The notes beneath the pieces are model-generated. The model was given only the letters and a program-made list of their open reading frames with translations, was not told where the DNA came from and did no database searches. Below are positions 1,611 through 41,098 of a DNA stretch of 64,000 bases, piece by piece (positions within the stretch are counted from its first letter, which is position 1; each line of letters starts with the position of its first letter). This DNA is from Gammaproteobacteria bacterium (GTDB lineage: Bacteria > Pseudomonadota > Gammaproteobacteria > GCA-001735895), in NCBI GenBank assembly GCA_024229615.1, contig JAAESG010000001.1, positions 907-64,906 of the forward strand. Reading direction: 5' to 3'. The position numbers and the translations under genes are program-made.

Positions 1611-3128
1611 ATGAAGTCTGTAATAATTTTTGGCTCATTTATATTTACCCTTGCTACGGGTACGGTTGCGTTCGCTCACGAAGACGAGGCGGTGGTACCT
1701 GCAAACACGTACTTTGCGATGGCAGTGACCGAAAATTCGCACAATCACTATGGTGAAAACCTGCTGTATCTGGACTTCCAGGAGCACCCCGACACGACAA
1801 AAATTGCACCTCGGATTGTAATATCGCCACGCATCAAACCGGGTAGTCTGACGATAGACGGGAAGTCTGGCGACTGGAATCCTACCTATCTCACCAAAAT
1901 CTGGGGTCGGGTAATGAATAACTATCCGCTGAGTGAGTTCTATGACGCGGTGCCAGGTGAAATTACCATGGGGTCTGCATGGGATGAAGACTACGTTTAT
2001 TTCCTGGTGCAATGGGAGGACGCCAACCACGATGCTTCCATTCATCGAAACTTGTGGACTTACAACGGTGACAAATGGAGTAAAAAGAAACATGTAAAGC
2101 CCAATCCGGGTGCTCCAGCAGCCAATGCGATAAACACAACTGACGAAATTTTCGGCAGTGAAAGTGAAGACCGTGTCTTCTTCATGTTTCCGGTCAGAGA
2201 TATGCAGCGCAATTTCCGCGAAGGTGGGCTGGGTTGCGCCGCTTATTGTCATGCCAATGCTGAGCTTAGCGGTACATCGACCGAAGCTGCGGTCGGTGAG
2301 GACGTGGCTGCGATGCACACCAATGTGCCTGAGGACAAGGCAGATGTGTGGCACTGGACCTCCACGCGGTCATTGCCATCACACACGCTTAAAGATGGCC
2401 ATTTGGTATATGGTATCGGCGATTACAACGGCAGGAAAGGAGACAAGGGGAATGCCTCGACGGTCAACAATGACAGCAAGAAGTTAAAGCATTCCAAGAC
2501 AGGTCAGCCAGCCTTCATGAGCTATCGCGACTACGCTGCTGGTAATTATGGTTCAGATAACAAGGACAGGACAAAATTCGATCAAAGTGATGCGATACCG
2601 ATGCGGGAAGTCAAATTCGTCAAAGGGGATACTATTCCGTATTCGATTAACCGACCCTCTACCGGTGGTCGTGGCGATGTAACCGCGCTTGCCACATTTG
2701 ACGAAAAATCACATCGCTGGACCCTGGAGATAAAGCGGGCCCGCAATACCGGCGATGGTGATGATTACCAGTTTATGGTTGGTACCGACGCGAATGCACC
2801 CGATAATCCGGCTGCGATCATTGGCGATGCGAAGCGCGGCGAACAGTTGTATTTGACTCACGGCTGCTCGGCCTGCCATCAGGATAAAGGGCAAGGATTA
2901 TTTCAGGGAGGAAAGTGGACCTTCCCCCGGATACAACGCAGCTCCGGAGCAACAATTCTGAAAACGGTGCGTTTCAATCGTGAAATGCGCGGAGCGGTAA
3001 GGTCTTTCATTGCTGATGAAATGAAAAAATCGGCTCAAAGAATCATGCCGGATATCCAGATAAGCGAACAGGAAGCGGAAGATATTGCCAGCTGGCTACA
3101 GCTACAGTTCACGACACTTGGAAATTGA
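1611..3128 (+). CDS. secreted di-haem c-type cytochrome with a large N-terminal non-cytochrome domain
   Basis: N-terminal signal peptide MKSVIIFGSFIFTLATGTVAFA. Two CxxCH haem-c motifs (CAAYCH and CSACH). C-terminal class-I cytochrome c-like segment GEQLYLTHGCSACHQDKGQG. AGGAGA ribosome-binding site before the ATG. Confidence 0.75.
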   Translation: MKSVIIFGSFIFTLATGTVAFAHEDEAVVPANTYFAMAVTENSHNHYGENLLYLDFQEHPDTTKIAPRIVISPRIKPGSLTIDGKSGDWNPTYLTKIWGRVMNNYPLSEFYDAVPGEITMGSAWDEDYVYFLVQWEDANHDASIHRNLWTYNGDKWSKKKHVKPNPGAPAANAINTTDEIFGSESEDRVFFMFPVRDMQRNFREGGLGCAAYCHANAELSGTSTEAAVGEDVAAMHTNVPEDKADVWHWTSTRSLPSHTLKDGHLVYGIGDYNGRKGDKGNASTVNNDSKKLKHSKTGQPAFMSYRDYAAGNYGSDNKDRTKFDQSDAIPMREVKFVKGDTIPYSINRPSTGGRGDVTALATFDEKSHRWTLEIKRARNTGDGDDYQFMVGTDANAPDNPAAIIGDAKRGEQLYLTHGCSACHQDKGQGLFQGGKWTFPRIQRSSGATILKTVRFNREMRGAVRSFIADEMKKSAQRIMPDIQISEQEAEDIASWLQLQFTTLGN

Positions 3129-7750: not shown

Positions 7751-7810
7751 CCGGCTATAAAAGCCGGGGTGTGTTTTACCTGAACCTGCGGATTCAGGTT
7801 TTATTTTTCT
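7751..7810. terminator. two adjacent hairpins forming a bidirectional terminator region downstream of the Rieske-GltS gene
   Basis: CCGGCT-ataaa-AGCCGG (7751-7767) and CCTGAA-cctgcgga-TTCAGG followed by TTTTATTTTT (7779-7810). Confidence 0.5.
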
Positions 7811-7841: not shown

Positions 7842-9461
7842 TCAATCGAGCGATACTCCTCCATAAGCGATGCCCGATAGATGTGCGATTTCACGGTCCC
7901 AGGTGGTCAAATCGTCGATACAGAACTGGTTCAGGTGCTGGTGACCGCAGGCTCTGGCCATAACCTGCATCAATTCGGTTGATGCGCACAGAAAATTACT
8001 CAACTGTTGAGCACCCTTGTCGATTTTCAGACGTTGCCGCAGTTCGGGTTTCTGGGTCGCGATGCCAACCGGACAATTATTGGTGTGACAGGCGCGCATG
8101 CCGAGGCAGCCGATAGATTGTAAGGCAGAGTTGGAAATAGCTATGGCGTCCGCGCCGAGCGCCAGCGCCTTGATAAAGTCAGCGGGTAAACGCAGACCAC
8201 CGGTGATTACCAACGATATGTCGTTGCGGCCTTTCTTCTCCAGATAACGTCTGGCGCGCGCCAGGGCGGGTATGGTCGGTACCGAGATATTGTCGCGGAA
8301 GATCAACGGCGCGGCACCGGTACCGCCGCCACGACCGTCGAGAATGATGTAGTCAACGCCGATCTGTAACGAGGCTTCGATGTCGCGTTCGATATGCTGG
8401 GCCGACAATTTGACGCCGATCGGAATTCCATCCGTGGCTTCACGCACTTCGGCTGCGAAACGGCGGTAGTCGTCGATATTATCCCAATCAGGAAAATGCG
8501 CGGGTGAAATGGCGGGCTCACCTTCATTAAGTCCGCGAACCTCAGCGATGCGTCCTTTAACCTTGCTTCCAGGTAAATGACCCCCTGTGCCGGTTTTAGC
8601 ACCCTGCCCACACTTGAAGTGAAAGGCCTGACACATGGCCACCTTGTCCATCGAGTAACCGAACCGCGCCGAGGCGAGTTCATACAGGTATCGACTGTTT
8701 GCCGATTGCTCGTCCGGTAGCATGCCACCTTCGCCCGAACAAATGCCGGTACCGGCGAGCTCGGCGCCCTGCGCCAGCGCAACCTTGGCTTCCTCGGACA
8801 ATGCGCCGAAGCTCATGTCCGATACGAATAGCGGGCGCTCGAGTAAAAGCGGCTTGTTGGCATTCGGGCCGATCACGACTTCAGTAGCGACGGGATCTTC
8901 ATCGAGTGCCGGAACCTTGTGCAGTTGCGCGGTTAGCAGCTGGATCTGTTCCCATTTGGGCAGTTCATCGCGAGGAACGCCCATTGCGCTAACGCGGCCA
9001 TGATGGCCAACCTTTGTCAGGCCGTGTTCGGCCAGGTGTTGAATATATTGGGTGTGCGGCTCTTCAGCAGCTCCATGGACATCCTGGTACAGACCCTGGT
9101 AGGCATGGCGGTTGTAGGGCTGCGGGTTAGCCTGTTCCCAGGCCCTGATTTCATCCTCATCGACCAGTACCTGACCGTTTTCGATCCATGACTCGAAACG
9201 ATCCAGCCGTTCTGAGTTGTTATAGGCGCTGACCCCGGATTTGTAGTTGTAGTCCCAGTTATGCAACCCGCAGATCAAATCATTTCCGTGAACATGTCCA
9301 TCCGACATTAGCGCGCCACGGTGTGCGCAGCGTCCATACAGAACTGATGCAGCATCATCATCCTGCCAGCGAATCACCACCAGATCGACCCCCGCGACCA
9401 GCGCATAGGTAGGGTCGAGCGGCTTCAGTTCGGAAAATTTGGCGATCGATATTTTATTCAT
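7842..9461 (-). CDS. Rieske [2Fe-2S] domain fused to a glutamate-synthase-like FMN/Fe-S (GltS central domain) oxidoreductase
   Basis: N-terminal Rieske motifs CAHRG...17...CGLHNW. Remainder matches glutamate synthase central-domain family proteins (FMN-binding GxGG region, LITGGLR, Cys-rich stretch). Confidence 0.8.
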   Translation of the reverse strand: MNKISIAKFSELKPLDPTYALVAGVDLVVIRWQDDDAASVLYGRCAHRGALMSDGHVHGNDLICGLHNWDYNYKSGVSAYNNSERLDRFESWIENGQVLVDEDEIRAWEQANPQPYNRHAYQGLYQDVHGAAEEPHTQYIQHLAEHGLTKVGHHGRVSAMGVPRDELPKWEQIQLLTAQLHKVPALDEDPVATEVVIGPNANKPLLLERPLFVSDMSFGALSEEAKVALAQGAELAGTGICSGEGGMLPDEQSANSRYLYELASARFGYSMDKVAMCQAFHFKCGQGAKTGTGGHLPGSKVKGRIAEVRGLNEGEPAISPAHFPDWDNIDDYRRFAAEVREATDGIPIGVKLSAQHIERDIEASLQIGVDYIILDGRGGGTGAAPLIFRDNISVPTIPALARARRYLEKKGRNDISLVITGGLRLPADFIKALALGADAIAISNSALQSIGCLGMRACHTNNCPVGIATQKPELRQRLKIDKGAQQLSNFLCASTELMQVMARACGHQHLNQFCIDDLTTWDREIAHLSGIAYGGVSLD

Positions 9462-9546: not shown

Positions 9547-10785
9547 CTATTCGATTACGACCAGACGTCGCGGCGCCTTGATCGGCAGTTCGGCGCTATC
9601 CTCCTTGAACAACAAGCTGCAGATATAGTAAGTGATCCCCGACATGCGTGGGCTGAAAAACTGGCTCTCGAAGTTGACGATGGTTCTGGGCTCAAAAACT
9701 TTTTCGGAATCTGAATGCGACATTTCATAGACAAAATTTCCGACCCAGTCCGGTGGAAACCCTATCCCCAATTCATAGCCACCTACCCAGCCCGCATCGG
9801 ACCAGATGCCGACATCATCGTAATACTGTCGGGCGCTGCGTACCAATTCTCCAACCGTCAACCCCGGTTTTAAAATATCGGCGATGACCGTAAACACACC
9901 TGACGACTTGTCGTGATACTCCATCACATCTTTGGGCGGTTCACCGAGATAAAACGAACGCGCCGCATTGGCGTGATAGCGCCAGTAGACGCCGCTGACA
10001 TCGACGTTAACCTGCTCGCCCTGCATGATCACCTTGCGACTCGCCAGGGAGTGGCCGGTATTGGCCTTCAGCCCGGATAGTACCGGCAGCGTGATCGCCG
10101 GGTTTTCACCACCGGCCTTCGCCATCGCATGAATCATTTCACCGTAGACGTCGAGTTCGGTAACTCCTGGCCGTATAGCATTCTTAGCCGCCTCGAGGCC
10201 GATATCCGTGATGCGCGCGGCGTGTTCGAGATATATGATTTCCTGGGGCGACTTGACCCAGCGCACTTCGCGCAGGATGTCGCTGCCATCGGTAACCGGG
10301 CATCCATTGCCTTCAAAAGCATTGCGAAATCTTGCACTGATGGCTGGATTCGGTCGGTAGCTGTAAAGCTCCATGCCGACCGTGCCACCGAGCCAACCCT
10401 CGGCTGCGAGTTCGTCCATGATGAAACCGATACCGTCGCGACGGTTATCGATCGGGAAGATACGAATATCCTTGGCGCAGGTCACGAAACGACACATGAC
10501 TTTTTCACTCGGTGTGTCGAACATGATGAAGTGGTCATGTTCGACATGTACCGCGATACCGCTCGTCGCCGGCCATTGTTTGGGACTTTGTGCCTGGTAC
10601 CATTCGCAGGTATAGCCACTGACATAGTAAAGACTTTCGGGCGCCGTCAACCAGAGTAGGTCGATGTTGTTGGCGGACATGTGTTTGCGTATCAAGCCGA
10701 GTCGGCTTTTGTACTCCGCCAGCGAAAACCCCAGTTCCATGGCTGGATTGCATTGTTCCAGTACCAGGCTACGGTTATGCCCCAT
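9547..10785 (-). CDS. M24 family metallo-amidohydrolase (creatinase / Xaa-Pro aminopeptidase / ectoine-hydrolase DoeA-like)
   Basis: Creatinase-type N-terminal domain plus C-terminal pita-bread domain with His/Asp/Glu metal ligands. GAGGGGA ribosome-binding site 8 nt before the ATG at 10785. Confidence 0.75.
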   Translation of the reverse strand: MGHNRSLVLEQCNPAMELGFSLAEYKSRLGLIRKHMSANNIDLLWLTAPESLYYVSGYTCEWYQAQSPKQWPATSGIAVHVEHDHFIMFDTPSEKVMCRFVTCAKDIRIFPIDNRRDGIGFIMDELAAEGWLGGTVGMELYSYRPNPAISARFRNAFEGNGCPVTDGSDILREVRWVKSPQEIIYLEHAARITDIGLEAAKNAIRPGVTELDVYGEMIHAMAKAGGENPAITLPVLSGLKANTGHSLASRKVIMQGEQVNVDVSGVYWRYHANAARSFYLGEPPKDVMEYHDKSSGVFTVIADILKPGLTVGELVRSARQYYDDVGIWSDAGWVGGYELGIGFPPDWVGNFVYEMSHSDSEKVFEPRTIVNFESQFFSPRMSGITYYICSLLFKEDSAELPIKAPRRLVVIE

Positions 10786-10899
10786 AACTTTAGTCCCCTC
10801 GCTTTTTATTGGTTGATTATCGAAAATTGGCCAAATGCGTTTAGAATATCAGGCTCGAATCCTTCTGTCAGAATGTAACTTTAATGGAGTGGAGAAATT

Positions 10900-12006
10900 A
10901 TGTCGGATCGACTGGCAGTATTTTTTGACGCATGCGTCTTCGACCACGATACCGGTCAGGGTTTTTTCGAAGCCAGGGCTTCACCCTATCTCCCGATTGT
11001 CGAAGCACATCCTGAAAATGACTTGCGTGCCCGGAATATGTATGGCGTGCTACAACATGGACCGATTGCCGAAGTGCTGGACTGGCATCAAGCAGAAATG
11101 GCCGAGAGGGTTGACCTGGAACGCTTTCATTCCGCGTCCTACATCGATGAACTCGAATCTATGGCAGATAACGAATCCTGCAGGATATCGGCAACCACGG
11201 TGTTTGGTCCTGGTAGTTATGATATTTGCCGAATGGCGACAGGTCTCGCTATCGCGGCTGCCAGTCACGTGTACACAGGCAAAGCAGCAGTTGCTTATGC
11301 GCTACTGCGACCGCCCGGGCACCATGCGCAACCGGAAATGGCCGACGGATATTGCTTTTTCAACAATATCGGTGTCGCGATCGAACATTTACGCGCGCAG
11401 GGATTGAAATCGGCCGCTGTCATCGACTGGGATGTGCATCATGGCAACGGTACCCAGGAGGGATTTTACCAGGACCCGGATATTCTGACGGCCTCGTTGC
11501 ATATGAATCACGGTGCCTGGGGTGCGACCCACCCGCAAAGTGGTGATATTGATGAAGCGGGTAAGGGTGCTGGGCTTGGCAAAAACATCAACCTGCCGAT
11601 GCCTTATGGTTCAGGTGACACGGCTTATCTCCGCGTATTTGATGAAATCATCGTTCCGATGGTGCGCGAGCATCGGCCAGAAGTCCTGTTTATCGCGAAC
11701 GGGCAGGACGCCAACCAGTTCGATCCGAATGGCCGCCAGCTACTCTCGATGGGCGGTTTTTATAAATTGGGCAAGCGTGCCAGGGTGTTAGCGGATGAAT
11801 GTTGCGACGGCAAAATGGTGTTGGTACAGGAGGGCGGTTATGCCATCAGTTACGCGGCCTATTGCCTGCATGCCTCGCTCGAGGGTGCGATTTACCGCGA
11901 GCCGAGTTTGCCGGATCCTCTGGTTTACATGCGGGAAGATACCGACGCGCTTGATGAATTTCTGAGGCGATTGAAACAGCGATATGCGATGGCGCTAAAG
12001 TGTTGA
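10900..12006 (+). CDS. histone-deacetylase-family amidohydrolase (AcuC / acetylpolyamine amidohydrolase-like)
   Basis: RPPGHHA and DWDVHHGNGTQ signature motifs of the arginase/deacetylase superfamily. GGAGTGGAGA ribosome-binding site. Confidence 0.8.
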   Translation: MSDRLAVFFDACVFDHDTGQGFFEARASPYLPIVEAHPENDLRARNMYGVLQHGPIAEVLDWHQAEMAERVDLERFHSASYIDELESMADNESCRISATTVFGPGSYDICRMATGLAIAAASHVYTGKAAVAYALLRPPGHHAQPEMADGYCFFNNIGVAIEHLRAQGLKSAAVIDWDVHHGNGTQEGFYQDPDILTASLHMNHGAWGATHPQSGDIDEAGKGAGLGKNINLPMPYGSGDTAYLRVFDEIIVPMVREHRPEVLFIANGQDANQFDPNGRQLLSMGGFYKLGKRARVLADECCDGKMVLVQEGGYAISYAAYCLHASLEGAIYREPSLPDPLVYMREDTDALDEFLRRLKQRYAMALKC

Positions 12007-13626: not shown

Positions 13627-14517
13627 CTAGTCTAAACCGATTTTTTTACGCGCTTCATCGGGTCCCAGGACGCGGGCGCCGAGGCGTTCAATAATCTCGA
13701 CTGCACGCTCGACCAGCATGCCATTGGTCGCAAGCACACCTCGATCGAGATAGATGTTATCTTCCAGGCCGACGCGCACATTGCCGCCGAGCAGCACTGC
13801 CTGTGCCACCATCGGCATCTGCATTCTGGAGATACCAAACCCGGCCCAGATCGAATTCTTCGGCAGTGCCTGCTGCATTGCCACCATCGTAGCGGTGTCC
13901 GCACCCGCGCCCCAGGGGATGCCCAGACAGATCTGAAACATCGGTGGCGCATCGATCAAGCCATCATCGATCACGCTACTCGCGAGGCGTATCTGCCCGA
14001 GATCGAAGACTTCCAGTTCGGGTTTGACGGCGAGCTCCTGAACCATCTGCGCCATGCGGCGTAAATAGGGTGCGGTATTGATGTAGGTGTAATTGCCGCC
14101 GAAATTCATCGTACCGCAATCAAGACTGCAAATATCGGGTTTACATTCGACGACGTGTGCGAGGCGTGCTTCCGGTCCAATCATATCGGTACCGGGCCCC
14201 GGCAGAGAAGGGTCCTCCTCGCTCGGCACCCAGTCTCCACCCATGCCGGCTGTCAGATTGATAATCATGTCAACACCGCTGTCGCGGATCATCTCCACGG
14301 CTTCCTTAAACAGTGCCGGATCGCGAGAACCCTGGCCGGTTTGGGGGTCGCGTACGTGAACGTGAACTACCGCCGCTCCCGCTCTGGCGGCTTCGATAGC
14401 GGCATCTGCCACCTGGCGCGGTGTGATCGGTACCAGATTGCTGCGGCTGGTAGTGTCGCCGGCACCCGTGATGGCGCAGGTAATGATGACATCTTGATTC
14501 ATATGCGATTCCCCCAA
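13627..14517 (-). CDS. beta-keto-acid cleavage enzyme (BKACE / DUF849; 3-keto-5-aminohexanoate cleavage enzyme family)
   Basis: [15 protein letters not shown]-terminus and TIM-barrel BKACE pattern. Confidence 0.8.
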
Positions 14518-28536: not shown

Positions 28537-29316
28537 TTAAGTTATGGGTTTGTTGCTGCGCCGATTACGCCATTCGGACAATTGGGCGTAGGCTAGCACA
28601 GACATAATCGGAAAAAGACTGGCGAAGGCGATCAGGCCAAAGCCGTCGAGTAACGGGTTACGACCCGGCACGGTGCTGGCTAGTCCGAGCCCGAGAGCAG
28701 CAACCAGTGGAACCGTTACGGTCGAGGTGGTGACACCGCCCGAATCATAGGCGAGCGCAATTATCATGCGTGGTGCGAACATAGTTTGTGCCAGCACCAA
28801 CACGTAACCGCTAATAATGTACCAGTAGAGTGGGGTGCCGGTGATGATTCGGAACACGCCCAGTGCGATACCGATAGCAACGCCTATCGCGACCGCGATG
28901 CGCAATCCCCAGGTTCCGATACTGCCGGCCGAGACCTGGTTTGCCTTAATCGCCACAGCCAGTAACGACGGTTCGGCGATGGTGGTTGAAAATCCGATGG
29001 CGAAGGCGAATAGGTAGACCCACTGGTAGTCCCACCATTGTAGAATCCTGCCGACATCGTCACCGGCGATGAAGACTGGATCGGTCAACTGTTGCGCCAT
29101 CAGCCGTCCAAGCGGGAACAGTGCCGCCTGCAGACCCTCGAGGAAAAAACCCAGTCCCAGCAACACCAGCAGGAAGCCGGTAAGAATTTTTTTCAGGTTG
29201 GGGATGGGTTTGCGCAGGATAAACAACTGGAATCCGAAAATAACCAACGCGATCGGTAAGACATCCCAGACGGTTGCTGCGATCGCATAAATCAGGTCTG
29301 TCAGGATGTGTATCAT
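28537..29316 (-). CDS. DUF1538 family integral membrane protein
   Basis: Multi-TM; paralogous to 29324-30055 (shared GVTTSTxTVPLVxALGxGLAS and [11 protein letters not shown] segments). Confidence 0.75.
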   Translation of the reverse strand: MIHILTDLIYAIAATVWDVLPIALVIFGFQLFILRKPIPNLKKILTGFLLVLLGLGFFLEGLQAALFPLGRLMAQQLTDPVFIAGDDVGRILQWWDYQWVYLFAFAIGFSTTIAEPSLLAVAIKANQVSAGSIGTWGLRIAVAIGVAIGIALGVFRIITGTPLYWYIISGYVLVLAQTMFAPRMIIALAYDSGGVTTSTVTVPLVAALGLGLASTVPGRNPLLDGFGLIAFASLFPIMSVLAYAQLSEWRNRRSNKPIT

Positions 29317-29323
29317 GGGCGCG

Positions 29324-30055
29324 TCATACCAGCATGCCGTAGCCCATGACGAATATCATCGGAGTCAGCGACGCGAATGCGATCAACCCGAAGCCGTCGA
29401 TCATCGGGTTGCGTCCCTTGATTGAACTTGCCAGGCCTACTCCCAGCGCAGTGACCAGAGGAACCGTAATCGTAGAAGTCGTGACGCCACCGGAATCATA
29501 AGCGATGCCGACTATCTCTTTGGGCGCAAACACGGTCATGATCACGACCCCCAGGTATCCGACTACGATCAGGTATTGAATCGGCCAACCCATGACGATG
29601 CGAAACACCCCGATCATGATGGCGATACCAACTGAAATCGCCACTGTTAGTCGTAAACCGGTGGCATAAGAGTTGAGCGACGGTGGACTGTTTTCAATCA
29701 TACCGCCATTGGCGGCGACAATTGCCGCTTCGTCGGCGACCGCGATCAGGGCTGGTTCGGCGATGGTGGTGCCAAAACCCAGTGCAAAGGCAAAACACAA
29801 CAGCCAGAAGATATTACCCTTGCTCGCGAAAGCATTGGCCATGCTCTCGCCGATGGGGAACAAGCCCATGTTCAAGCCCTGAACAAACAGGGTTAAACCG
29901 ATCACGACAAATAGTATGCCAACTGCGATTTCGCCGAAATTCGGAATGGGTTGCTGTAATACTGCGAATTGGAAAAATCCGATGACAACGATGATGGGGA
30001 GTAGATCGCGCAGGCTGTCAAATAGTGAGATCCATACCACCTTCAGTGATTTCAT
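29324..30055 (-). CDS. DUF1538 family integral membrane protein
   Basis: Paralogue of the downstream gene; first gene of a 4-gene operon. Confidence 0.75.
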
Positions 30056-33281: not shown

Positions 33282-34490
33282 TCAGTCCTCGACGAGGTGG
33301 CCGTAATGTTTGTAAAACAGACGCAGCCAGAAGGGTGTGAGCAGAGTTGTGTAGGCGATGACGATAACCACAGTGGCATAGATTTCGTGGTTGAACAGCC
33401 CGGTATGACGGCCAATCTCGGCGAATACCAGGCCGACCTCACCGCGTGGCACCATGGACATTCCGATGATGATACGACGCGCGAGTTTTTCTCGAATCAG
33501 CAATCCTGCGAGAACTTTGGAGAGGATCGCCACGCCGGCGAGGGTTACAGAAAATATCCAGAAAAAAACCGAACTCAAATCCAGCGAACTCAAATCCAGC
33601 GACAGCCCGACCGTGACAAAGAAAACGGGTGTGCACAGCTGAATCACCGGTTTCATCTGGTTGTGTACGCGAGATGAAAATTCCGGATCAGCTTTAAGCG
33701 CGACACCGAAAGGAAGAAAGAAGCGGCGCGACAGCGCGAGCCCAGTAGCAAAACCACCGAGCAATTGCGGAATCCCAATGGCATGCGACAACCAGGCCAT
33801 GAAAAGCACCAGCGATACGATTGTAGTCGGGACCATGCCGGGAGTTTCGCTGACCGACTCCCAGCGATTGATGACGTAACTGATCGTCTTCGCCATTGCC
33901 GGTGCGACCATGAAGAAAACTGCCATGAACAGCAGGATTTTCGAGGTGCCAATCAGGTCTACCGAGCCGCTGGTAATGAAATTGAACAGAATCGCCAGCA
34001 GCAGTACGCCCATGATATCGTCCAGTACTGCAGCGCCCAGGATGATGTGCCCCTCGTGGCTCTGGTCGCGGTCGAGGTCGGTCAGGGTTCGCATGGTAAT
34101 ACCGATACTGGTTGCGGTCATGGTTCCCGCAATGAGTAGCGAGACCAGGAATTCGAGCTCGAAGCCGTAATAGCTGATCGTGAAACAACTCGCAAACGGT
34201 AGTAAAAATCCTGCGATTGCAACGATGACAGATTTGGTCCCGGCGCTTGCGAGCTCACCGATATCGGTCTCCAGCCCGACTTCGAACAACAGCAGGATGA
34301 TGCCGATTTCAGCCAGCACCCAGATCAATCCATCGGCTTCGATGAAGCCTAGTAGTGACGGTCCCAGGATAACCCCGGCAATAATTTCACCGATCACCGT
34401 GGGTACTTTAATATAAGCCGCCAGTTCGCCCATGACGCGTGCGGCGATCAGGATCATCGCGACTTGCAAAATGGTCGTCGAAGTATCCAT
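33282..34490 (-). CDS. monovalent cation:proton antiporter (CPA family, Kef/NhaP-like)
   Basis: N-terminus MDTSTTILQVAMILIAARVMGELAAYIKVPTVIGEIIAGVILGPS typical of CPA antiporters; 12-13 TM helices. No Shine-Dalgarno sequence upstream. Confidence 0.8.
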   Translation of the reverse strand: MDTSTTILQVAMILIAARVMGELAAYIKVPTVIGEIIAGVILGPSLLGFIEADGLIWVLAEIGIILLLFEVGLETDIGELASAGTKSVIVAIAGFLLPFASCFTISYYGFELEFLVSLLIAGTMTATSIGITMRTLTDLDRDQSHEGHIILGAAVLDDIMGVLLLAILFNFITSGSVDLIGTSKILLFMAVFFMVAPAMAKTISYVINRWESVSETPGMVPTTIVSLVLFMAWLSHAIGIPQLLGGFATGLALSRRFFLPFGVALKADPEFSSRVHNQMKPVIQLCTPVFFVTVGLSLDLSSLDLSSVFFWIFSVTLAGVAILSKVLAGLLIREKLARRIIIGMSMVPRGEVGLVFAEIGRHTGLFNHEIYATVVIVIAYTTLLTPFWLRLFYKHYGHLVED

Positions 34491-37388: not shown

Positions 37389-38582
37389 GTGTCAGAAAGC
37401 ACTCTTGATACCAAAAAAGTAACGCGTGCTGCATTGTTGGGCCGTGATTATCGTGGGGTCAAATTTGAGCTGCTTTGCCGGGAGGGTGACGAAGTCGGCG
37501 CCGGCGATGCGGTGATGCGTGATCTGCGCCGCCCGGCTATCAAGTTTGTGGCTCCGGTATCCGGCCGGATAGCCCGTATTGACAGGGGAGCCCGACGCAA
37601 ACTGATTTCGATGCAAATAGATATCGACGATTCAGTGCCGGTGGCCGGGGTGGAACCACCGGCTGATAACAAGACTGATACATTGCGCAGTTTCATGCTC
37701 GAGTCGGGCGCCTGGAGCGCGTTACGCACGCGACCATTCGGGAATATCCCGGGTCCCGACGGCGAGCCTGCCGCGATATTTGTAACCGCGTTGGACAACG
37801 ATTCTTATGCGCCTCGAGCGTGCCAGATCATCGATTCACGAATGGATGAATTCCGCGCTTCGCTTGAGGTTCTCGCGGATATCAGCACTGCACCGTTATA
37901 CCTTTGCCACGCTCCCGATCATAGCCTCGCGTTCGCGGATTCCAGCAAGATTCGCTGCGTACCGTTTAGTGGCGGATATACGGCCGGCTTGCCCGGCTTC
38001 CATATCAACCGCCTGGCACCGATCGGATTTGCCGGCCGGGAAGTCTGGCACATGGGTTATCAGGATGTGATTGCGCTAGGACATTTGTTAGTGCATGGCA
38101 AACCCTGGTTGCATCGCGTTATTTCGCTAGCCGGTAGCGCTGTCCAAAATCCTCGCAATCTGTGCGTGGTGCCCGGCGCCGCAAATGATGAATTACTCGA
38201 AGGTGAGCTTGCCGATGGCCCCAACCAGATTCTGGCGGGATCCCCGCTATACGGTCGCCCTCTCGACACAGGGCAGTCTTTCCTGGGTGCCGGGCAGCGC
38301 CAGCTCAGCGCACTGCTCGGGAAATCCGAAGAATCTGGCAAGTCGGACGGGGTCGGTACGATAATCCCGAGCGACAGACTGGAAGCGGCGTCACCGCCGG
38401 GCATCTACCCGGTGCCGTTGATGCGTGCATTGCAACTCGGCGATGCCGAACGTGCGCGCGAACTGGGTGCCCTGGAACTGGTGGAAGAGGATTTGTCACC
38501 GCTTAGCCTGGCCTGCGTTTCAAACAGCGACTATGGGTCGCTGCTGCGTGCGGTGCTCGAGCAGATCGAGGCGGCACGCTAG
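37389..38582 (+). CDS. nqrA: Na+-translocating NADH:quinone oxidoreductase subunit A
   Basis: Alignable to NqrA (...WSALRTRPFGNIPGPDGEPAAIFVTALD..., GALELVEEDLSPLSLACVSNSDYGSLLR). Confidence 0.9.
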   Translation: MSESTLDTKKVTRAALLGRDYRGVKFELLCREGDEVGAGDAVMRDLRRPAIKFVAPVSGRIARIDRGARRKLISMQIDIDDSVPVAGVEPPADNKTDTLRSFMLESGAWSALRTRPFGNIPGPDGEPAAIFVTALDNDSYAPRACQIIDSRMDEFRASLEVLADISTAPLYLCHAPDHSLAFADSSKIRCVPFSGGYTAGLPGFHINRLAPIGFAGREVWHMGYQDVIALGHLLVHGKPWLHRVISLAGSAVQNPRNLCVVPGAANDELLEGELADGPNQILAGSPLYGRPLDTGQSFLGAGQRQLSALLGKSEESGKSDGVGTIIPSDRLEAASPPGIYPVPLMRALQLGDAERARELGALELVEEDLSPLSLACVSNSDYGSLLRAVLEQIEAAR

Positions 38583-39670
38583 TGGCGACAATGACGACAC
38601 AAGTGACCAGGCGAGCGGATGCGCGTCGGCACATTGTCAAATTGTGGCTAATCGCCCTGCTGCCCGTCAGTTTGGTTGCAATATTCAATTCCGGGCACCA
38701 ATACCTGAGCGCTGTCGATAGCAATCTGCTTGCCGCTGATGATCTGCGTAGCCTATTGCTCCGAGGGCTCGGTGCCAGCGCACAAAACCCGGGACTGTAC
38801 GACATGGTTATCGTTGGAGTGGCGCATTTCCTGCCGATCCTGACCATGGCGCTGCTGGTGGGTGGTTTCTGGGAGCGAATTATTGCAGATCGTAGTCAGC
38901 GATCCATGGAACCGGGATTTATCCTGGTCGCGTTGCTGTTCACGCTGATGTTGCCGGGTGCAGCTGCGTTCATGCATGTCGCTTTTGGCATGTCGCTGGC
39001 GATGATACTTGGCAAGGCGATTTTCGGCGGTGACGGAAAAAGCTTTTTGAACCCGGCATTGCTGGGTGTGGCGATCGTGCAGGTCAGTTTTCCGGGTGCT
39101 GCCGGGTCACACCCGTTGTGGAGCGGACTCGCCGGTTATGCTGGCAGTGACGCCATCGGTTTGTATCATCGAGGCGGTGAAAGCGCGCTCACGGCGGCCG
39201 ACATGGACCTGTGGTCGGCGTTTATCGGCAGCACCCCGGGGCTGATGGGAACCACTTCGGTTTTGGCGGTTGCGCTGGGTGCAGCCCTGCTGCTGTGGAA
39301 GGGCCTGATTGCCTGGCGATTGCTCGCCGCGCAAATGATTGGCTTGTTTGTATTTGCAGGGATTTTCAATTTACTCGGGGCCGATCAGGGTGCCGGCACG
39401 ATGCCCTTCTACTGGCATCTGTTACTTGGCAGCTTTGCCTTCGGTGCGGTGTTTCTGGCCTGCGATCCGGTTGCATCTTCGTCTACTAATCCCGGGCGCT
39501 GGATCCAGGGATTTCTGATTGCCGCCCTGGTGGTACTGATTCGGGTTGCCAACTCGACTCATCCGGATGCGGTCGTCCCGGCCTTGTTGCTGGCCTCGAT
39601 CATGGCCCCGCTCATCGATCACGGGGTGATCGCATGGAACATACGTCAGCGGGCTCGCCGTCATGTCTGA
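38582..39670 (+). CDS. nqrB: Na+-NQR subunit B
   Basis: FLPILTMALLVGGFWE..., GKAIFGGDGKSFLNPALLG, FMN-attachment region SGAT absent here but TM pattern and C-terminus IDHGVIAWNIRQRARR match NqrB. Start overlaps the nqrA stop. Confidence 0.85.
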   Translation: MATMTTQVTRRADARRHIVKLWLIALLPVSLVAIFNSGHQYLSAVDSNLLAADDLRSLLLRGLGASAQNPGLYDMVIVGVAHFLPILTMALLVGGFWERIIADRSQRSMEPGFILVALLFTLMLPGAAAFMHVAFGMSLAMILGKAIFGGDGKSFLNPALLGVAIVQVSFPGAAGSHPLWSGLAGYAGSDAIGLYHRGGESALTAADMDLWSAFIGSTPGLMGTTSVLAVALGAALLLWKGLIAWRLLAAQMIGLFVFAGIFNLLGADQGAGTMPFYWHLLLGSFAFGAVFLACDPVASSSTNPGRWIQGFLIAALVVLIRVANSTHPDAVVPALLLASIMAPLIDHGVIAWNIRQRARRHV

Positions 39671-40439
39671 AGTGATACCCAGAGACAGTACTGCCAGGGC
39701 TCTCGGCGTCGCGCTGCTGGTGGCGTTTATCTGCGGACTTCTGGTATCGGTAGTCGCGGTTGAGCTGCGGCCGATCCAAAAGGCCAACATCGAAGCCGAA
39801 CGTATCGCTCAGCTCGAACTGGTGCTGGATGCATTGTCGGACATCGGACGAGTGCAGAGCATTGACAGCCTCGAGGCACGAATCGTCGAACTCACCAGCG
39901 GCCAGTTCGACGACAGCATCGACCCGGCAACCTTCGATGCGGAAAGGGCGGTCAGAAGATCGACGAGCAGTGTCGCGATTCCAGCCGATCTCGATCTGGC
40001 CGGGCTTAAGCGACGTGCGAAGCACGCACAGGTTTACCTCGTCAACGACGCCAATCGGCGTATCGAATTGATCATCCTGCCAGTTTCGGGCCGTGGATAT
40101 CAGTCGACTTTACGCGCCTGGCTAGTGCTCGATGGCGGTACTCAAACCGTACGCGCGCTCAAATTTTACCAGCATGGCGAGACTCCGGGTGTCGGTGCGC
40201 GCATCGAGGAACCTGAATGGGAAGCGCAATGGCGTGATTTGAGTGCCTACGACGATGCCGGTGTACTGCGCATTGGCGTCAGATCGCAGGCTGGCTATAG
40301 CGATGACGCCGAGTTCCAGGTCGATGGCATCTCCGGCGCGACCCGCACCATGCAGGGTGTCGATGGCATGCTGCGTTTCTGGCTCGGCGAGTTTGGTTTT
40401 GCGAACTTTCTGCAACGTATCCGTGAGGAGCAACTCTGA
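39663..40439 (+). CDS. nqrC: Na+-NQR subunit C
   Basis: FMN-attachment motif DGISGATRT and NqrC topology. Confidence 0.9.
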
Positions 40440-41098
40440 TGCAGAACAATAACTGGAAAATTCTGACCCGCCCGCTGATCGATGACAATCCATTGACCCT
40501 GCAGATTCTCGGCATCTGTTCCGCGTTGGCGGTGACTACATCGCTCGATACCGCGTTGTTGATGAGCCTGGTCGTGGTTTGTGTACTCGCCTTGGGCAGC
40601 GCTTCGGTTAGCCTGATTCGAAAATTTATCCCGCATACGATACGGATCATCGTACAGATTACGATTATTGCGACCCTGGTCATCGTGGTTGACCAGGTAC
40701 TTCAGGCCTATGCTTTCGAGCTCAGCAAACGTTTGTCCGTTTTCGTCGGCTTGATCATCACCAACTGCATCGTACTCGGGCGCGCCGAAAGCTACGCCAT
40801 GCACAATGGTTTTGTCGCCAGCACGCTGGATGGAATCGGTAACGGACTGGGCTACTCCCTGATTCTTGTTATCGTTGGTGCGATCCGTGAATTTTTCGGT
40901 AAAGGAAGCCTGCTCAATGTGCAGATACTGATCCCGCAAAGTCAGGGCGGATCTTTCGAACCCCTGCAATTGATGCTGTTACCGCCGAGCGCGTTTTTCA
41001 TTATCGGTGGCATTATCTGGTTTATTCGCAGGCGTCGCCCGCAACAGGTCGAATCCGCAGAATTCAGCTTGCGCCAGCTCGAGGATAGTGCGAAATGA
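40439..41098 (+). CDS. nqrD: Na+-NQR subunit D
   Basis: [18 protein letters not shown] and [13 protein letters not shown] match NqrD. ATGA overlap with nqrC. Confidence 0.9.

Follow-up and report, generated by a model that had tools for sequence, protein, structure and literature searches.

Stand-alone proteins built on the flavin mononucleotide (FMN)- and [3Fe-4S]-binding domain of glutamate synthases (GltS) are common in bacteria and archaea, where their reaction is unassigned. Among them, fusions of a tandem CDGSH module to the GltS FMN domain have been described by bioinformatic means as 'type 5 CISD' (Lin et al., 2011; PMC3174974, PMC5859297), and a rubredoxin fusion, CD0828 of C. difficile, was purified in 2025 in a study that did not establish its physiological substrate and left the question of its function open (PMC11980386), in line with the statement of an initial annotation of the DNA studied here that such proteins are functionally unresolved. 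In CD0828, FMN and the [3Fe-4S] cluster are predicted to lie ~6.8 Å apart and a loop of ~40 residues follows the rubredoxin; H2O2 and air induce its gene, which belongs to an rbr-perR-sor operon, and deletion of this gene leads to sensitivity to both (PMC11980386). Here we analyse a Rieske-fused relative of these proteins, encoded in a 64,000-nucleotide stretch of DNA from a Gammaproteobacteria bacterium (the window; assembly GCA_024229615.1, contig JAAESG010000001.1, positions 907 to 64,906), and tentatively propose that it is a glutamate-type amino-acid/2-oxo-acid oxidoreductase that would exchange single electrons through its Rieske domain, with the oxidative direction favoured.

The architecture as such is already visible in public annotations, where the full-length homologues carry generic names throughout; what is new is the Rieske variant and its conserved partners. 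A literature search found no paper on the Rieske-GltS-like fusion, on a Rieske-PoxB-like fusion described below or on their joint cluster, and a search for 'FMN-binding glutamate synthase family' returned incidental mentions only, one of which concerns N-methylglutamate synthase. A review of Fe-S flavoenzymes offers no data at the level of single residues.

Domain architecture of the Rieske-GltS-like protein

The gene is an open reading frame (ORF) that runs from ATG to TGA on the minus strand, a strand that the initial annotation had not named, fills its interval exactly (Table 1) and encodes 539 residues plus the stop; read on the plus strand, the same interval is interrupted by many stop codons. 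Start and stop are correct, as the alignments of homologues run from residue 1 to the end, and a 100% identical protein from a gammaproteobacterial metagenome-assembled genome (MAG) is held at NCBI under the title 'Rieske 2Fe-2S domain-containing protein'. Pfam recognises an N-terminal Rieske domain (PF00355, residues 4-77, E 2.7e-11, 43.6 bits with the cut-off at 20.3) and a Glu_synthase domain (PF01645, residues 189-506, E 1.2e-92, 311 bits with the cut-off at 20.4), so that the fusion of a Rieske and a GltS-like domain suggested by the initial annotation is borne out, with both matches above their cut-offs. The GltS-like nature of the C-terminal part is further supported by a search of PDB sequences, where it matches the FMN domains of GltS large subunits (E 2e-40 to 2e-33), and by Foldseek with an AlphaFold 2 (AF2) model of the whole protein (mean predicted local distance difference test score (pLDDT) 78.9, predicted template modelling score 0.67), in which GltS FMN domains rank first (E ~1e-21), followed by flavocytochrome b2 and glycolate oxidase (E ~1e-13). 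Weak echoes of the FMN_dh (PF01070) and IMPDH barrels are also seen in Pfam.

Two details of the initial annotation need correction. The domain had been labelled the 'central' domain of GltS, a name that in GltS nomenclature belongs to a different part of the enzyme than the FMN-binding domain found here, and it had been taken to span the ~430 residues after the Rieske domain, of which residues 189-506 do form the barrel and residues 101-188 are a family-specific linker. This linker has a mean identity of 65% over 87 homologues and aligns with that of the CDGSH-fused paralogues, and is therefore part of the catalytic module.

In the 539-residue protein, Pfam finds no match to GATase_2, Glu_syn_central or GXGXG, and because these three defining domains (glutaminase, central and GXGXG) are absent, the protein is not a canonical glutamate synthase. 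Nor does Pfam find an NAD(P)-binding domain in it. With the GltB model of NCBIfam, whose cut-off is 1047 bits, it reaches 145 bits, and none of the NCBIfam equivalog models reaches its cut-off for this protein or for the products of the partner genes introduced below. The Rieske N-terminus has no signal or Tat motif, and the protein is predicted to be a soluble, cytoplasmic iron-sulfur flavoprotein.

The Rieske domain has a pLDDT of ~76-95 in the AF2 model. Its ligand motifs, CAHRG (residues 45-49) and CGLHNW (residues 64-69), are present in the translation as had been noted before, and all four ligands, C45, H47, C64 and H67, are retained in 87 of 87 informative homologues, which rules out a degenerate motif. 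The domain weakly matches the Rieske ferredoxins NirD, MocE, HcaC and AndAb. High-potential Rieske proteins of the bc1/b6f type carry an extra pair of disulfide cysteines beside the cluster (C-x-H-x-G-C ... C-x-C-H), and because no additional cysteines surround the ligands here (CAHRGA ... CGLHNW), the domain would be of the low-potential, ferredoxin type. A reading as a Rieske oxygenase is ruled out: Pfam and the PDB search find no oxygenase catalytic domain, which would hold a mononuclear Fe centre (2-His-1-carboxylate), and the oxygenases SxtT, NdmA, CntA and KshA match the Rieske part alone (residues 4-93), the remainder being the GltS barrel.

Relationship to known systems and exchange of the carrier module

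The same FMN barrel, with its C-x5-C-x4-C motif, is found in ferredoxin-dependent GltS (Fd-GltS; Synechocystis, 1OFD/1LLW) and in the α subunit of NADPH-dependent GltS (1EA0, 7MFM), where the substrate-site Gln, Lys and Arg are likewise kept and a one-electron carrier feeds the 3Fe-4S cluster. These enzymes differ in possessing the N-terminal nucleophile (Ntn) glutaminase, the central domain and the GXGXG β-helix, and hence an ammonia tunnel, all of which are missing here, whereas the Rieske-GltS-like protein has its ferredoxin fused and of Rieske type and reads TGTGGH in place of PGEGGQ; identity is only ~35% over 264 residues. Flavocytochrome b2 is an analogue in design and not a close homologue: it too is an FMN TIM-barrel dehydrogenase of 2-substituted acids with a tethered N-terminal one-electron carrier, but this carrier is a haem b5 domain, there is no [3Fe-4S] cluster and the chemistry is that of hydroxy acids.

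CD0828 has the same layout: its N-terminus is a small Fe-S carrier, joined by a linker that is flexible or modelled with low confidence to a GltS-like barrel with C-x5-C-x4-C, in a protein of comparable length (~480-540 residues). It differs in its rubredoxin carrier, its anaerobic Firmicute host, its rbr-perR-sor operon and the lack of thiamine diphosphate (ThDP) and membrane Rieske partners. One protein with a fused rubredoxin-like module in our set (P0147, 485 residues), not necessarily CD0828 itself, is 46% identical to the barrel described here. The nearest paralogues are the type 5 CISD proteins, which carry another [2Fe-2S] carrier, CDGSH, at the position of the Rieske domain.

We surveyed the fusion types in a library of representatives at 50% identity. 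The closest non-Rieske relatives (P0122 and P0123) have tandem CDGSH domains and are 55-64% identical to the Rieske-GltS-like protein over linker and barrel, while more distant relatives carry Fer4_19 plus CDGSH, Rieske plus CDGSH plus Fer4_19, rubredoxin or rubredoxin-like modules, a C-terminal rubrerythrin, a 4Fe-4S dicluster or a GXGXG domain. The N-terminal carrier module is thus interchangeable among paralogues. Because CDGSH, rubredoxin, rubrerythrin or 4Fe-4S modules take the place of the Rieske domain, the latter is best read as a carrier and not as part of an oxygenase, that is, as a tethered one-electron carrier that would serve the [3Fe-4S] cluster and FMN as soluble ferredoxin does for Fd-GltS. 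Judged by its sequence, the protein belongs with the carrier-fused, stand-alone GltS-like flavoproteins of ~480-630 residues, together with type 5 CISD and CD0828, as their Rieske variant.

Active site, conservation and distribution

C452, C458 and C463 align with the C-x5-C-x4-C motif of GltB and are invariant in 88 of 88 sequences as well as in every fusion type. Likewise, Q286, K289 and R309 do not vary, whether within the Rieske-fused family, among the other fusion types or in GltB of E. coli. We equate these three residues with Q969, K972 and R992 in the Fd-GltS of Synechocystis, and map them to the 2-oxoglutarate/2-iminoglutarate site in the Synechocystis and Azospirillum GltS structures. 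Sites for FMN, [3Fe-4S], the Rieske [2Fe-2S] cluster and a GltS-type carboxylate substrate are, as far as alignments can tell, all present. Since these three residues and the [3Fe-4S] cysteines stay the same even in the comparison with E. coli GltB, a substrate of the glutamate/2-oxoglutarate type is the default assumption, and the earlier description of the chemistry as distinct from glutamate synthesis is not supported.

The gene is widespread. More than 8000 homologues share words with it, and the best 120 of these, 81-100% identical, come from Thiodiazotropha, Sedimenticolaceae, Thiogranum and unnamed metagenome contigs. Among contigs representing one genome per species, the 80 best loci hold full-length orthologues with 67-88% identity from more than 10 phyla and mainly from marine or sponge sources, spanning Gamma- and Alphaproteobacteria, Nitrosomonas, Nitrospinaceae, Nitrospirales, Poribacteria, Marinimicrobia, Myxococcota, Acidobacteriota, Chloroflexota, Gemmatimonadota, Spirochaetales, Bdellovibrionales and Acidimicrobiales. 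The carriers thus include relatives of sulfur-oxidising symbionts, nitrifiers, sponge symbionts and marine Alphaproteobacteria, several of them cultured (for example Ahrensia marina, Hoeflea poritis, Ruegeria, Cognatiyoonia and Pelagibius), and these cultured carriers make the function directly testable. The Rieske-fused clade is unusually conserved: 200 of the 539 positions are nearly invariant in 88 sequences from this many phyla, a sign of strong purifying selection.

Recurrent partner genes in other genomes

We called ORFs at 87 loci, compared all their products with one another by BLASTP to form clusters and annotated those that recur; 57 of these loci are well flanked, with at least 4 kb on each side. 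Five gene families recur (Table 1), and at least one of the two Rieske-bearing partners occurs in 32 of the 57 well-flanked loci (56%). The nearest orthologues with partners are those of L001 (88% identity) and L002 (84%); a partner is also present in L003 (65%). This context, with recurrent Rieske-PoxB-like, cytochrome-b-Rieske and antiporter genes, offers a clue that is absent from the other fusion types inspected.

Table 1. Features of the Rieske-GltS-like gene (positions in the window) and gene families recurring beside its orthologues.
Feature	Position	Strand	Evidence or occurrence
Whole gene, Rieske-[GltS-type FMN/3Fe-4S] fusion	7842..9461	-	ORF, Pfam, 100% NCBI match
N-terminal Rieske [2Fe-2S] domain, residues 1-100	9162..9461	-	PF00355; weak Rieske-ferredoxin matches; AF2
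Rieske ligand box CAHRG...CGLH (C45, H47, C64, H67)	9261..9329	-	translation; 87/87 homologues
Conserved linker / N-terminal barrel extension, residues 101-188	8898..9161	-	alignment with CDGSH-fused paralogues; AF2
GltS-type FMN-binding (β/α)8 barrel, residues 189-506	7944..8897	-	PF01645; PDB GltS; Foldseek
Active-site segment QGAKTGTGGHLPG...R with Q286, K289, R309	8535..8606	-	alignments
[3Fe-4S] ligand motif C452-x5-C458-x4-C463 (CLGMRACHTNNC)	8073..8108	-	translation; GltB alignment; 88/88 invariant
Pair of short, G+C-rich hairpins between the gene and the methyltransferase gene (spacer of 90 bp)	7751..7801		T-runs behind them on the plus strand only
Rieske + TPP_enzyme_N/M/C fusion, ~659 residues			38/87 loci; 28/57 well-flanked
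Ferric_reduct (MsrQ-like, ~6 transmembrane helices) + C-terminal Rieske, ~355 residues			23/87 loci; 16/57 well-flanked
c9, ~253 residues, one N-terminal transmembrane helix			21/87 loci; 16/57 well-flanked
Na_H_Exchanger (K+/H+-antiporter-like), mostly directly upstream and overlapping the start of the Rieske-GltS-like gene			19/87 loci; 14/57 well-flanked
c11, DUF5996-like, ~283 residues			18/87 loci; 10/57 well-flanked

Over all 87 loci, the most frequent partner, the Rieske-TPP gene, is separated from the Rieske-GltS-like orthologue by a median gap of 30 nt and shares its strand in 33 of 39 cases. Its ThDP-dependent part most resembles pyruvate oxidase and the PoxB of E. coli (3EYA, E 1e-67; PRK08611 of NCBIfam, E 3e-114) and aligns to residues 3-528 of the 572 of PoxB, from which the partner differs by its N-terminal Rieske domain and by an alignment that stops ~40 residues before the PoxB end. 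We take these last ~40 residues to be the lipid-activated C-terminal segment of PoxB. Both pyruvate oxidase and PoxB are electron-releasing decarboxylases of 2-oxo acids. The c9 gene follows the Ferric_reduct-Rieske gene wherever the sequence suffices, and its product has an invariant motif, GEICDxKC...GxMxPG.GLAHKxCAxLC, and no Pfam match. The c11 gene mostly adjoins the Rieske-GltS-like orthologue or the Rieske-TPP gene, and its DUF5996 match is below threshold; profile searches of c9 and c11 against PDB sequences gave nothing significant.

Three Rieske-bearing proteins (GltS-like, PoxB-like ThDP and Ferric_reduct) and c9 are encoded in one operon at, for example, L038:11641-16053, and such operons are also found in L018, L032, L042, L053, L059, L070, L074 and others. 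That three unrelated proteins of one operon each bring their own Rieske domain is unusual for a simple electron chain and would fit a Rieske domain that senses redox state, O2 or NO and so regulates the flavoenzyme, and likewise the ThDP enzyme, instead of wiring electrons. We regard this as extremely doubtful: the modules that replace the Rieske domain in paralogues are mostly known electron carriers or acceptors (CDGSH, rubredoxin, 4Fe-4S, rubrerythrin), and a barrel with FMN and [3Fe-4S] would need a one-electron partner.

In the window itself, tblastn with all members of the partner families gave no match besides the Rieske domain of the Rieske-GltS-like gene, and the Na_H_Exchanger gene of the window (33282-34490) has no tblastn match to the antiporters of the clusters. 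The window therefore shows an orphan copy; as the source contig is only ~66 kb long, the partners may sit elsewhere in the source genome.

Variants of the arrangement occur as well. In a Nitrosomonas MAG (L025:2527-6046), the Rieske-fused gene is followed by a membrane-anchored GltS-like paralogue (26% identity), whose N-terminus is hydrophobic and devoid of Rieske motifs, and then by the Rieske-TPP gene. A distant Rieske-GltS-like clade (~41% identity; L091:7001-8863, L092:1211-3073), whose cluster includes sequences of Ca. Endoriftia and tubeworm symbionts, is convergent with a gene for a stand-alone CDGSH protein of 81 residues, which echoes the CDGSH fusions of the paralogues.

Proposed reaction and direction of electron flow

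We propose that FMN interconverts an L-glutamate-type 2-amino acid and the corresponding 2-imino/2-oxo acid, and that the two electrons would travel singly between FMN, [3Fe-4S], the Rieske cluster and an external partner. Such a chain would be that of ferredoxin-GltS with the ferredoxin built in, in an architecture recalling the tethered haem domain of flavocytochrome b2. In the oxidative direction, which is less certain, the protein would be an amino-acid dehydrogenase that sends electrons outwards; at orthologous loci, the adjacent Rieske-PoxB-like ThDP enzyme would oxidatively decarboxylate the 2-oxo-acid product, and both enzymes would pass electrons to the di-haem (Ferric_reduct/MsrQ-like) membrane protein, whose Rieske domain is presumably cytoplasmic. 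The probability of this reading as a whole, the oxidative preference included, we put at roughly 0.45. It retains from the initial annotation an oxidative C-N chemistry, in that redox chemistry of an amino acid or imine at FMN is the most plausible, and drops its 'N-demethylation-like' variant, for which the oxygenase catalytic domain is missing.

Provided that the enzyme is of this type, the oxidative direction is somewhat the better supported, because 1) the rubrerythrin fusions and the biology of CD0828 make the barrel a source of electrons, 2) an amino-acid dehydrogenase yields a 2-oxo acid, and compounds of this class are the substrates of the PoxB-like enzyme next to it, which lends the gene pair a metabolic logic, and 3) the di-haem membrane Rieske protein resembles an electron outlet of the NOX/MsrQ-like kind. 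For the membrane haem partner, a role as sink is more plausible than one as donor to a Rieske ferredoxin.

The main rival runs the same chain in reverse, as a glutamate synthase that depends on ammonia, has no glutaminase and carries its own ferredoxin, in which electrons from the Rieske-PoxB-like enzyme, drawn from pyruvate or another 2-oxo acid, would pass through Rieske and [3Fe-4S] to FMN and there reduce the 2-iminoglutarate formed from NH3 and 2-oxoglutarate. The cofactor chain, the K/R/Q residues and the cysteines are identical to those of ferredoxin-GltS, the Rieske domain lacks the extra cysteines associated with high-potential types, and a strongly reducing oxidiser of 2-oxo acids adjoins the gene in about half of the well-flanked loci. 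However, free ammonia is, to our knowledge, used very poorly by the GltS synthase site when glutaminase and tunnel are missing, the PGEGGQ segment of GltB is altered to TGTGGH, no role is left for the membrane haem-Rieske partner, and the rubrerythrin fusions and the CD0828 phenotype suggest an output of electrons. Taken together, this makes the reductive direction rather unlikely.

A second rival follows what was proposed for CD0828 and sees a diaphorase or carrier reductase for defence against oxidative stress, in which NAD(P)H or an abundant metabolite would feed the barrel and the tethered carrier would serve the detoxification of peroxide or oxygen, or periplasmic repair, for instance through the Ferric_reduct-Rieske protein and c9. 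Besides the H2O2- and air-induced expression of the CD0828 gene and the H2O2 sensitivity of its mutant, the reducibility of CD0828 by NADH, the existence of rubrerythrin and rubredoxin fusions and the constant position of c9 after the Ferric_reduct-Rieske gene speak for this. It is nonetheless decidedly unlikely, since the reduction of CD0828 by NADH is slow and its authors rejected a physiological partnership with Rbr and Sor, leaving the function open (PMC11980386), the protein studied here lacks an NAD(P)-binding domain, and the strictly kept residues of the GltS substrate site argue for a specific carboxylate substrate.

Several observations weigh against the proposed glutamate-type oxidoreductase. 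Q286, K289 and R309 are invariant across the whole aligned PF01645 set and so do not single out glutamate. Within the active-site segment, where QGAKPGEGGQLPG of GltB corresponds to QGAKTGTGGHLPG in the Rieske-fused family, T290, T292 and H295 stand in for P, E and Q of GltB in a family-specific manner; H295, kept in 87 of 88 sequences, presumably occupies the position of Q978 in Synechocystis GltS numbering. Position 224, to which we assume E903 of GltS to map, with an ambiguous equivalent (E223/E224), is E in 48 of 88 homologues and P in 36. In the AF2 model, pLDDT falls below 50 at residues 114-161 of the linker, and this low confidence extends to the geometry between Rieske and [3Fe-4S]. 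A low-potential Rieske centre and the glutamate/2-oxoglutarate couple have nearly equal potentials, so that the direction does not follow from sequence. As for the genomic context, 25 of the 57 well-flanked loci, the window included, have neither Rieske partner nearby, and no ThDP partner accompanies the CDGSH-fused relatives (2 loci) or the distant Rieske-fused ones (3 loci, ~40% identity). Finally, purified CD0828 is slowly reduced by NADH and passes electrons very slowly to Rbr and Sor, in experiments where glutamate was not tried (PMC11980386).

Building on the oxidative form of the glutamate-type reading, one may imagine a 'Rieske-plug' system, quite unlikely in its entirety, in which the GltS-like and PoxB-like dehydrogenases, each cytoplasmic and with a Rieske domain of its own, act in series and dock on the NOX/MsrQ-like Rieske membrane protein. 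Glutamate would be converted to 2-oxoglutarate by the GltS-like barrel and the 2-oxo acid to an acid and CO2 by the PoxB-like enzyme, while quinone or c9, a periplasm-facing protein with a Cys/His motif, would receive the electrons exported by the membrane protein, and the translationally coupled K+/H+-type antiporter might point to a joint disposal of K+ and glutamate (osmotic downshift) or of NH4+. If true, this would be a route from glutamate to succinate independent of NAD and CoA.

Genomic neighbourhood in the window

On the minus strand, an M24/creatinase-like gene (10785-9547), the Rieske-GltS-like gene (9461-7842), an S-adenosylmethionine (SAM) methyltransferase gene (7751-6921) and a DUF4202 gene (6828-6208) form a run with gaps of 85-92 bp, while an HDAC-family gene and a D-2-hydroxyacid dehydrogenase gene lie divergently on the plus strand, with a BKACE gene further on. 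The initial annotation saw in this a catabolic-looking cluster headed by the Rieske-GltS-like gene and recommended choosing substrates by the neighbouring amidohydrolases. The close spacing of the run, with the HDAC-like gene divergent, would be in keeping with an oxidase or N-demethylase-like enzyme of catabolism whose amine substrate is delivered by the M24 and HDAC-like proteins. We nevertheless consider this very improbable: the protein has no oxygenase catalytic domain, its gene is second in the run and not first, and the neighbours are not conserved even at 88% identity and recur nowhere among the 87 loci.

The closest genome, L008 (orthologue 88% identical), was compared over 21.6 kb around the orthologue. 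TrpBA, DUF3301, OmpA, MFS, BKACE and 2-hydroxyacid dehydrogenase genes are syntenic there, whereas nothing in this stretch corresponds to the M24, HDAC-like and DUF4202 genes; a methyltransferase homologue lies 9.3 kb from the orthologue, and other genes separate the latter from the dehydrogenase. The comparison indicates that the Rieske-GltS-like gene is functionally independent of the adjacent M24, HDAC-like, methyltransferase and DUF4202 genes, which leaves little ground for selecting substrates by the M24 and HDAC-like proteins. For annotation, neither the name 'glutamate synthase' nor a function drawn from the neighbours in this window should be used.

The M24 and divergent HDAC-family genes (9547-12006) look like a lineage-specific insertion, for whose horizontal origin the composition profile, with no anomaly at these genes, gives no sign. 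The M24 protein is creatinase/ectoine-hydrolase-like (NCBIfam DoeA_2, 137 bits against a cut-off of 575). The BKACE (beta-keto acid cleavage enzyme) gene (13627-14517, minus strand) also lies within a few kb of the orthologues in the closest gammaproteobacterial relatives, L004-L006, L008, L010 and L011, which probably reflects shared synteny and not a functional link. At the end of the run, the DUF4202 protein is recognised with E 3.5e-72, and the literature search found no paper mentioning this family.

The two hairpins that follow the stop codon of the Rieske-GltS-like gene (Table 1) are flanked by genes on the minus strand, opposite to the strand of the T-runs, and promoter and terminator scans around the gene gave counts within ~1.5 standard deviations of the shuffled expectation.

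Elsewhere in the window, an ORF of 505 residues (1611-3128, plus strand) combines a haem domain of the ethylbenzene-dehydrogenase type (EB_dh) with a C-terminal cytochrome c domain and has no NCBIfam match. A row of plus-strand ORFs, NqrA (37389-38582), NQR2_RnfD_RnfE (38582-39670), FMN_bind (39663-40439) and an Rnf-Nqr subunit (40439-41098), is consistent with a Na+-NQR-type operon, and a pair of DUF1538 membrane proteins is encoded at 28537-30055.

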